Assembly (NCBI RefSeq): GCF_041886205.1
Contig: NZ_CP169029.1
Strand: one strand, 5' to 3'
Source: Escherichia coli
GTDB taxonomy: Bacteria; Pseudomonadota; Gammaproteobacteria; Enterobacterales; Enterobacteriaceae
Length of the DNA stretch: 64,000 nucleotides
Part shown: in pieces, positions 17,484 to 17,499 of the stretch
Numbering within the stretch: position 1 is the first letter of the stretch
Layout: each line of letters opens with the position of its first letter
Made by a program: the position numbers and the translations under genes
The notes under the pieces: generated by a model
The model's input: only the letters and a program-made list of their open reading frames with translations
Database searches by the model: none
What the model was told of the DNA's origin: nothing

Positions 17484-17499
17484 ACGCAAACGGTTTCGT
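17484..17499 (+). promoter_or_regulatory. PurR operator (pur box) in purL promoter
   Basis: acgcaaacggtttcgt, a 16-bp near-palindrome matching the PurR consensus, about 80 nt upstream of purL. Confidence 0.6.

Follow-up and report, generated by a model that had tools for sequence, protein, structure and literature searches.

The PurR operator of the Escherichia coli purL promoter

The 257-bp non-coding spacer between the divergent genes mltF and purL of the E. coli chromosome contains a 16-bp near-palindrome, which raises the questions of whether PurR represses purL from this site and by what mechanism it would do so. The window, as we call the whole 64-kb stretch of DNA that was analysed, reads ACGCAAACGGTTTCGT at positions 17484–17499. 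This is exactly the 16-mer reported there by a first-pass annotation, which regarded it as a near-perfect pur box in the position expected for repression of purL. The gene downstream of the box is annotated as purL in RefSeq, and its product matched the NCBIfam equivalog model NF003672 at 2273 bits, compared with a cut-off of 783. The ATG of purL is located 77 nt past the end of the box (Table 1). A 401-bp spacer query matched 5425 of 5426 complete E. coli genomes at an identity of at least 95%; all of the matches were chromosomal and all were annotated with mltF on one side and purL on the other. In the best-matching record, the genes follow one another in the order tadA, mltF, purL, qseE, qseG, glrR, glnB, hmpA, and glyA. 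The purR gene itself is outside the 64-kb window; the PurR protein studied by ChIP in PMC3159470 is that of E. coli K-12. The matching RefSeq record also contains shoB, a small type I toxin gene, annotated between acpS and yfhL at about 12922–13002 of the window.

Table 1. Features of the mltF–purL region, in coordinates of the window
Feature	Position	Strand	Description
mltF	15762..17318	-	Divergent neighbour, 518 aa; NF008112 at 755 bits, and annotation; listed for context only
PurR operator (pur box) of purL	17484..17499	.	ACGCAAACGGTTTCGT; central CpG at 17491-17492
Putative -35 position of the purL promoter	17494..17499	+	TTTCGT, 2/6 match to TTGACA; placed by the 17-bp spacing to the -10 hexamer; wholly inside the operator
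Spacer between operator/-35 and -10	17500..17516	+	17 bp; length invariant, most of the sequence variable
-10 hexamer of the purL promoter	17517..17522	+	TATAAT; identified by conservation, exactly 17 bp past the box
Predicted transcription start	17529..17530	+	7-8 nt past the -10 hexamer; placed from promoter geometry
purL leader	17530..17575	+	Conserved 5' end GTTTCCCC; conserved ribosome-binding region GAAGACGAGAGACTT
purL coding sequence	17576..21463	+	Regulated gene; phosphoribosylformylglycinamidine synthase, 1295 aa; open reading frame, NF003672 and RefSeq annotation

The box consists of the halves ACGCAAAC and GGTTTCGT, joined at a CpG that occupies positions 8–9, and contains a half-site of the GCAAAC type. 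It agrees with the ideal palindrome ACGCAAACGTTTGCGT at 14 of 16 positions and is self-complementary at 12 of 16. The description of the box as near-perfect is justified by its excellent fit to the PurR motif, but it is slightly generous with respect to the palindrome, in which six of the eight pairs are symmetric. To score the site, we built PurR weight matrices from the 28 motifs in Table 1 of Cho et al. 2011 (PMC3159470), leaving out purL; in a second version the glyA site, which is also in the window, was left out as well, resulting in a matrix of 26 sites. The 26-site matrix assigned the purL box 22.15 bits of a possible 25.24, more than any other of the approximately 128,000 positions on the two strands of the window. 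This score would place the box seventh among the 28 published PurR sites, the scores of which range from 12.3 to 25.2 bits. In the orientation used by Cho et al., the box differs by one mismatch from the matrix optimum ACGAAAACGTTTGCGT, which is the sequence of the purT site. The matrix scan had been put forward in the first-pass annotation as a possible refutation, through a score below threshold; it returned the box as the top match of the window, with an exact p of 1.6e-8 per position, compared with the motif cut-off of p < 1e-4 in the published study (PMC3159470). The second-best match in the window was the glyA site (21.48 bits), and the next independent match scored 12.3 bits. The mltF–purL spacer contains no other PurR match of at least 10 bits in the matrix scan, and therefore purL has a single-operator promoter.

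Read as its reverse complement, ACGAAACCGTTTGCGT, the box agrees in every letter with the purL motif that Cho et al. 2011 list in their Table 1 (PMC3159470). The published motif is located at 2,693,642–2,693,657, within the ChIP-chip region 2,693,490–2,693,714, and the PurR peak at purL had a log2 value of 1.88 with adenine, with no peak in its absence; Cho et al. assigned the peak to purL only (PMC3159470). Judged by its sequence, the box in the window is the same element as the purL PurR site of E. coli K-12 MG1655, another strain, with which it shares the 16 bp (as the reverse complement), the regulated gene, the divergent neighbour, and the distance to the start codon. The 77 nt between the box and the ATG match the published coordinates only if purL starts at 2,693,565 in the assembly used there, which we take to be the case. 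The box is also identical in the four aligned E. coli sequences, which comprise the window and three fetched strains. The identity of the gene and the match to the ChIP-chip motif thus support the assignment of the box as the PurR operator of purL.

The purL operator is therefore already known, curated, and experimentally supported, and does not represent new biology. The original work on it is reportedly that of He et al. 1990 (J Bacteriol 172:4555) and Meng et al. 1990 (Eur J Biochem 187:373), to whom it is credited in reference lists; the latter study is said to name purL in its title. The binding of purified PurR and the effects of mutations in the box are reportedly credited to the same two studies. 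The value of the present assignment is that of a correct annotation, and it indicates that a first-stage reader can spot a textbook regulatory motif from raw sequence.

The position of the box relative to the purL promoter bears on how bound PurR would act. Between the box and the ATG there is a single TATAAT, the -10 hexamer at 17517–17522, which follows the box at a distance of exactly 17 bp. The -35 position is therefore inside the operator, where the match to the -35 consensus is poor. A consensus promoter scan, which requires four of six matches in the -35 element, missed the purL promoter, whose -35 match falls short of this rule. Relative to the predicted transcription start, the operator would span about -46/-45 to -31/-30.

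The arrangement of box and -10 hexamer is retained in related bacteria. An exact scan for the 16-mer in a one-genome-per-species collection (298 Gb) identified at least 120 loci. Since an exact match was the criterion for selecting these loci, the conservation of the box itself is circular; independent evidence comes only from its linkage to purL and its constant distance to the -10 hexamer. Among the matches listed, at least 69 loci have the box 67–131 nt upstream of a purL homologue and in the same orientation; across these loci the N-terminal identity of PurL is 60–97%, and the divergent mltF is present in 66 of the 69. Two more loci, which end before purL, have the same promoter signature, so that the arrangement is found in at least 71 species of Enterobacterales, which, like Pasteurellales and Vibrionales, have PurR. 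The purL-linked loci belong to the genera Escherichia, Citrobacter, Enterobacter, Klebsiella, Serratia, Yersinia, Pectobacterium, Dickeya, and Erwinia, and further to Photorhabdus, Xenorhabdus, Proteus, Providencia, Morganella, Edwardsiella, Hafnia, and Arsenophonus. A hexamer is positioned exactly 17 bp past the box in all 71 loci, and reads TATAAT in 69 (67 linked to purL and the two that end before it) and TATACT in two. The box, 17-bp distance, and hexamer were found together in none of the 49 remaining loci with the same 16-mer among the matches listed, most of which are from unrelated phyla.

The sequences around the conserved elements have diverged. This applies to most positions of the 17-bp spacer, to the DNA that precedes the box, and to the central part of the leader, the length of which varies between 43 and 107 nt. 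Within the spacer, columns 17501–17510 are variable across the 69 species, the T at 17512 is invariant, and columns 17514–17515 are conserved in 64 of 69. The spacing to the -10 hexamer is invariant and the distance to the ATG is variable, and therefore the box is tied to the promoter core and not to the coding sequence, which makes the cross-species set a clean illustration of an operator that follows a promoter core. The box thus has the position expected for repression of purL, as the first-pass annotation had stated: it ends 17 bp before the -10 hexamer and covers the -35 position, with a spacing that is fixed in at least 71 species.

The repressor PurR, a dimer of the LacI family, has hypoxanthine and guanine as corepressors and binds DNA only together with a ligand (PMC4052901 and a review). 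In complex with either purine, it represses the pur genes (PMC3159470 and reviews). PurR sites are generally located in the -35 to -10 region of promoters and act on initiation; the exceptions are purB and purR, in which PurR bound inside the gene blocks elongation (PMC3159470). The kink at the central CpG is known from crystal structures of PurR–DNA complexes, which are cited in PMC2577325. Based on the evidence presented above, we are highly confident that purL of E. coli has a single PurR operator in its promoter, at positions 17484–17499, and that this operator acts by promoter occlusion in the presence of hypoxanthine or guanine. When either of the purines accumulates, a corepressor-bound dimer of PurR, a member of the LacI/GalR family, would occupy the 16-bp imperfect palindrome. 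The bound PurR would kink the operator at the central CpG, in the manner that Schumacher et al. 1994 reportedly described. By covering the -35 position, it would keep RNA polymerase off the promoter and thereby lower the transcription of purL. We infer promoter occlusion as the physical mechanism, as well as the exact start site, from the geometry of the promoter. Nothing was found that contradicts the reading of the site as a PurR operator of purL.

The physical mechanism has one documented alternative. PurR could act at purL as an elongation roadblock, as it does at purB and purR (PMC3159470), instead of blocking initiation. However, the box is upstream of the sole conserved -10 hexamer, so that polymerase starting from this promoter never crosses it, which makes a roadblock at purL extremely improbable. 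Because the box covers the -35 position and precedes the -10 hexamer, occlusion is the best supported mechanism and a roadblock is excluded by the geometry. More improbable still, to a degree that makes it negligible, is that the 16-mer arose by chance as a near-palindrome and regulates nothing. Chance can produce such sequences: when the full 64 kb were shuffled with dinucleotides preserved, 5 of 500 shuffles reached a score of at least 22.15, as opposed to none of 500 mononucleotide shuffles, the higher background of the former being due to the retained frequencies of CG, AA, and TT. Furthermore, the 49 loci from mostly unrelated phyla mentioned above carry the exact 16-mer, and about 139 chance matches are expected in a collection of 298 Gb. 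Nevertheless, 0.002 matches at this score are expected in the window and 8e-6 in the mltF–purL spacer, the site is a published ChIP-bound motif, and its 17-bp distance from the -10 hexamer has been kept in at least 71 species despite diverged flanks.

The box could also serve mainly a different regulator of the LacI family that recognizes a similar half-site, for example RbsR, the closest paralogue of PurR. PurR originated from a duplication of RbsR and "retained the motif" (PMC4052901), which makes cross-recognition conceivable. We consider this reading very improbable, since the ChIP peak of PurR at purL depends on adenine, the purL site scores among the top third of genuine PurR sites, and purL belongs to the IMP pathway, the genes of which are reported as "completely represse[d]" by PurR (PMC3159470). 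It is further countered by Meng et al. 1990, the title of which reportedly indicates that purL escapes purine repression when purR is deleted and rbsR is intact. A Cra/FruR-type reading of the right half-site was dropped by eye, at four of eight matches to GTTTCAGC. It is somewhat less improbable, although still unlikely, that the operator is bidirectional and controls the divergent mltF in addition to purL or instead of it. The box is within the spacer shared by the two genes and is overlapped by a promoter-like sequence on the minus strand, CTGACG-18-TAAAAT (17502->17473). This sequence, however, has only 9 of 12 matches, and a better candidate promoter, TTGCCA-17-CAAAAT (17427->17399), is about 60 bp from the box and does not overlap it. 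The assignment of the ChIP-chip peak to purL only (PMC3159470) and the invariant spacing with which the box follows the -10 hexamer of purL also argue against control of mltF. The -35 element of TTGCCA-17-CAAAAT overlaps a moderately conserved block, GCAACTTATT, and this is the more plausible promoter of mltF.

The box of the window strain is identical to that of MG1655, but the strain differs by a rare C-to-T substitution 29 nt downstream of the box, at 17528. The window strain has T at this position, and the three other aligned E. coli strains have C, as do 51 of the 69 Enterobacterales species. Exact matches to a 72-nt core promoter query (17464–17535) were found in 2 of 5425 complete genomes. 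Position 17528 is 6 nt downstream of the -10 hexamer, in the discriminator and start-site region.

The start of the purL leader, GTTTYCCCC (17530–17538; GTTTCCCC(C)), is nearly as conserved across the 69 Enterobacterales species as the -10 hexamer, with 56–68 of the 69 species agreeing in each of the columns 17531–17537. The conserved leader start may represent a property of the initial transcribed sequence. We regard it as unlikely that GTTTYCCCC is a second, PurR-independent control element, acting through nucleotide-sensitive selection of the start site, reiterative transcription on the G-UUU tract, or as a determinant of the response to ppGpp. If it were such an element, the rare C-to-T substitution at 17528 would alter the expression of purL in this strain. 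The purL leader has no Rfam match at E <= 1, and that of E. coli folds no better than shuffled sequences (z = +1.34). The leaders of many relatives, including Enterobacter, Citrobacter, and related species, contain an extra GC-rich inverted repeat, GCGCC(N2-4)GGCGC, and are therefore about 10 nt longer, with 87–88 nt between the box and the ATG instead of 77. The leaders of E. coli and E. albertii are without this hairpin.

Other PurR operators within promoters, such as those of purF, purMN, purHD, and purT, resemble that of purL in being 16-bp imperfect palindromes centred on a CpG, from which PurR with hypoxanthine or guanine represses initiation in the -35 to -10 region; the purT site is the empirical optimum, from which the purL box is one deviation away. 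The intragenic operators of purB and purR share the repressor and the motif with purL, but they are located downstream of the transcription start, and elongation is blocked there. The PurR and PurBox of Bacillus and Lactococcus have the name and the regulated pathway in common with the enterobacterial PurR. However, PurR of these bacteria is an unrelated protein, which senses PRPP and (p)ppGpp and recognizes a different DNA motif, and the purL site does not belong to that family.

The third-best independent match in the window, ATGCAAACGATTTCAA at 25646–25661, is at the 3' end of glrR; the start of glnB follows about 70 nt further on. Its score of 12.3 bits is one at which about 1.7 chance matches are expected in 64 kb. 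From its sequence and position, this match is probably the PurR site of glnB, which is reportedly implied by the title of He et al. 1993. The ChIP-chip experiments of Cho et al. did not detect glnB (PMC3159470).

The second-best match, AGGTAATCGTTTGCGT at 27497–27512, lies between hmp and glyA, with the start codon of glyA about 120 nt downstream. Its score with the leave-out matrix is 21.5 bits. Cho et al. list the identical sequence as the glyA motif in their Table 1 (PMC3159470), and the match is a second known PurR operator in the window. The glyA and purL boxes share the motif family and the repressor. They differ in that, from a reading of the sequence, the glyA box is upstream of the likely -35 element of glyA, whereas the purL box is on the -35 position, and in that glyA functions in one-carbon metabolism and purL in the IMP pathway.
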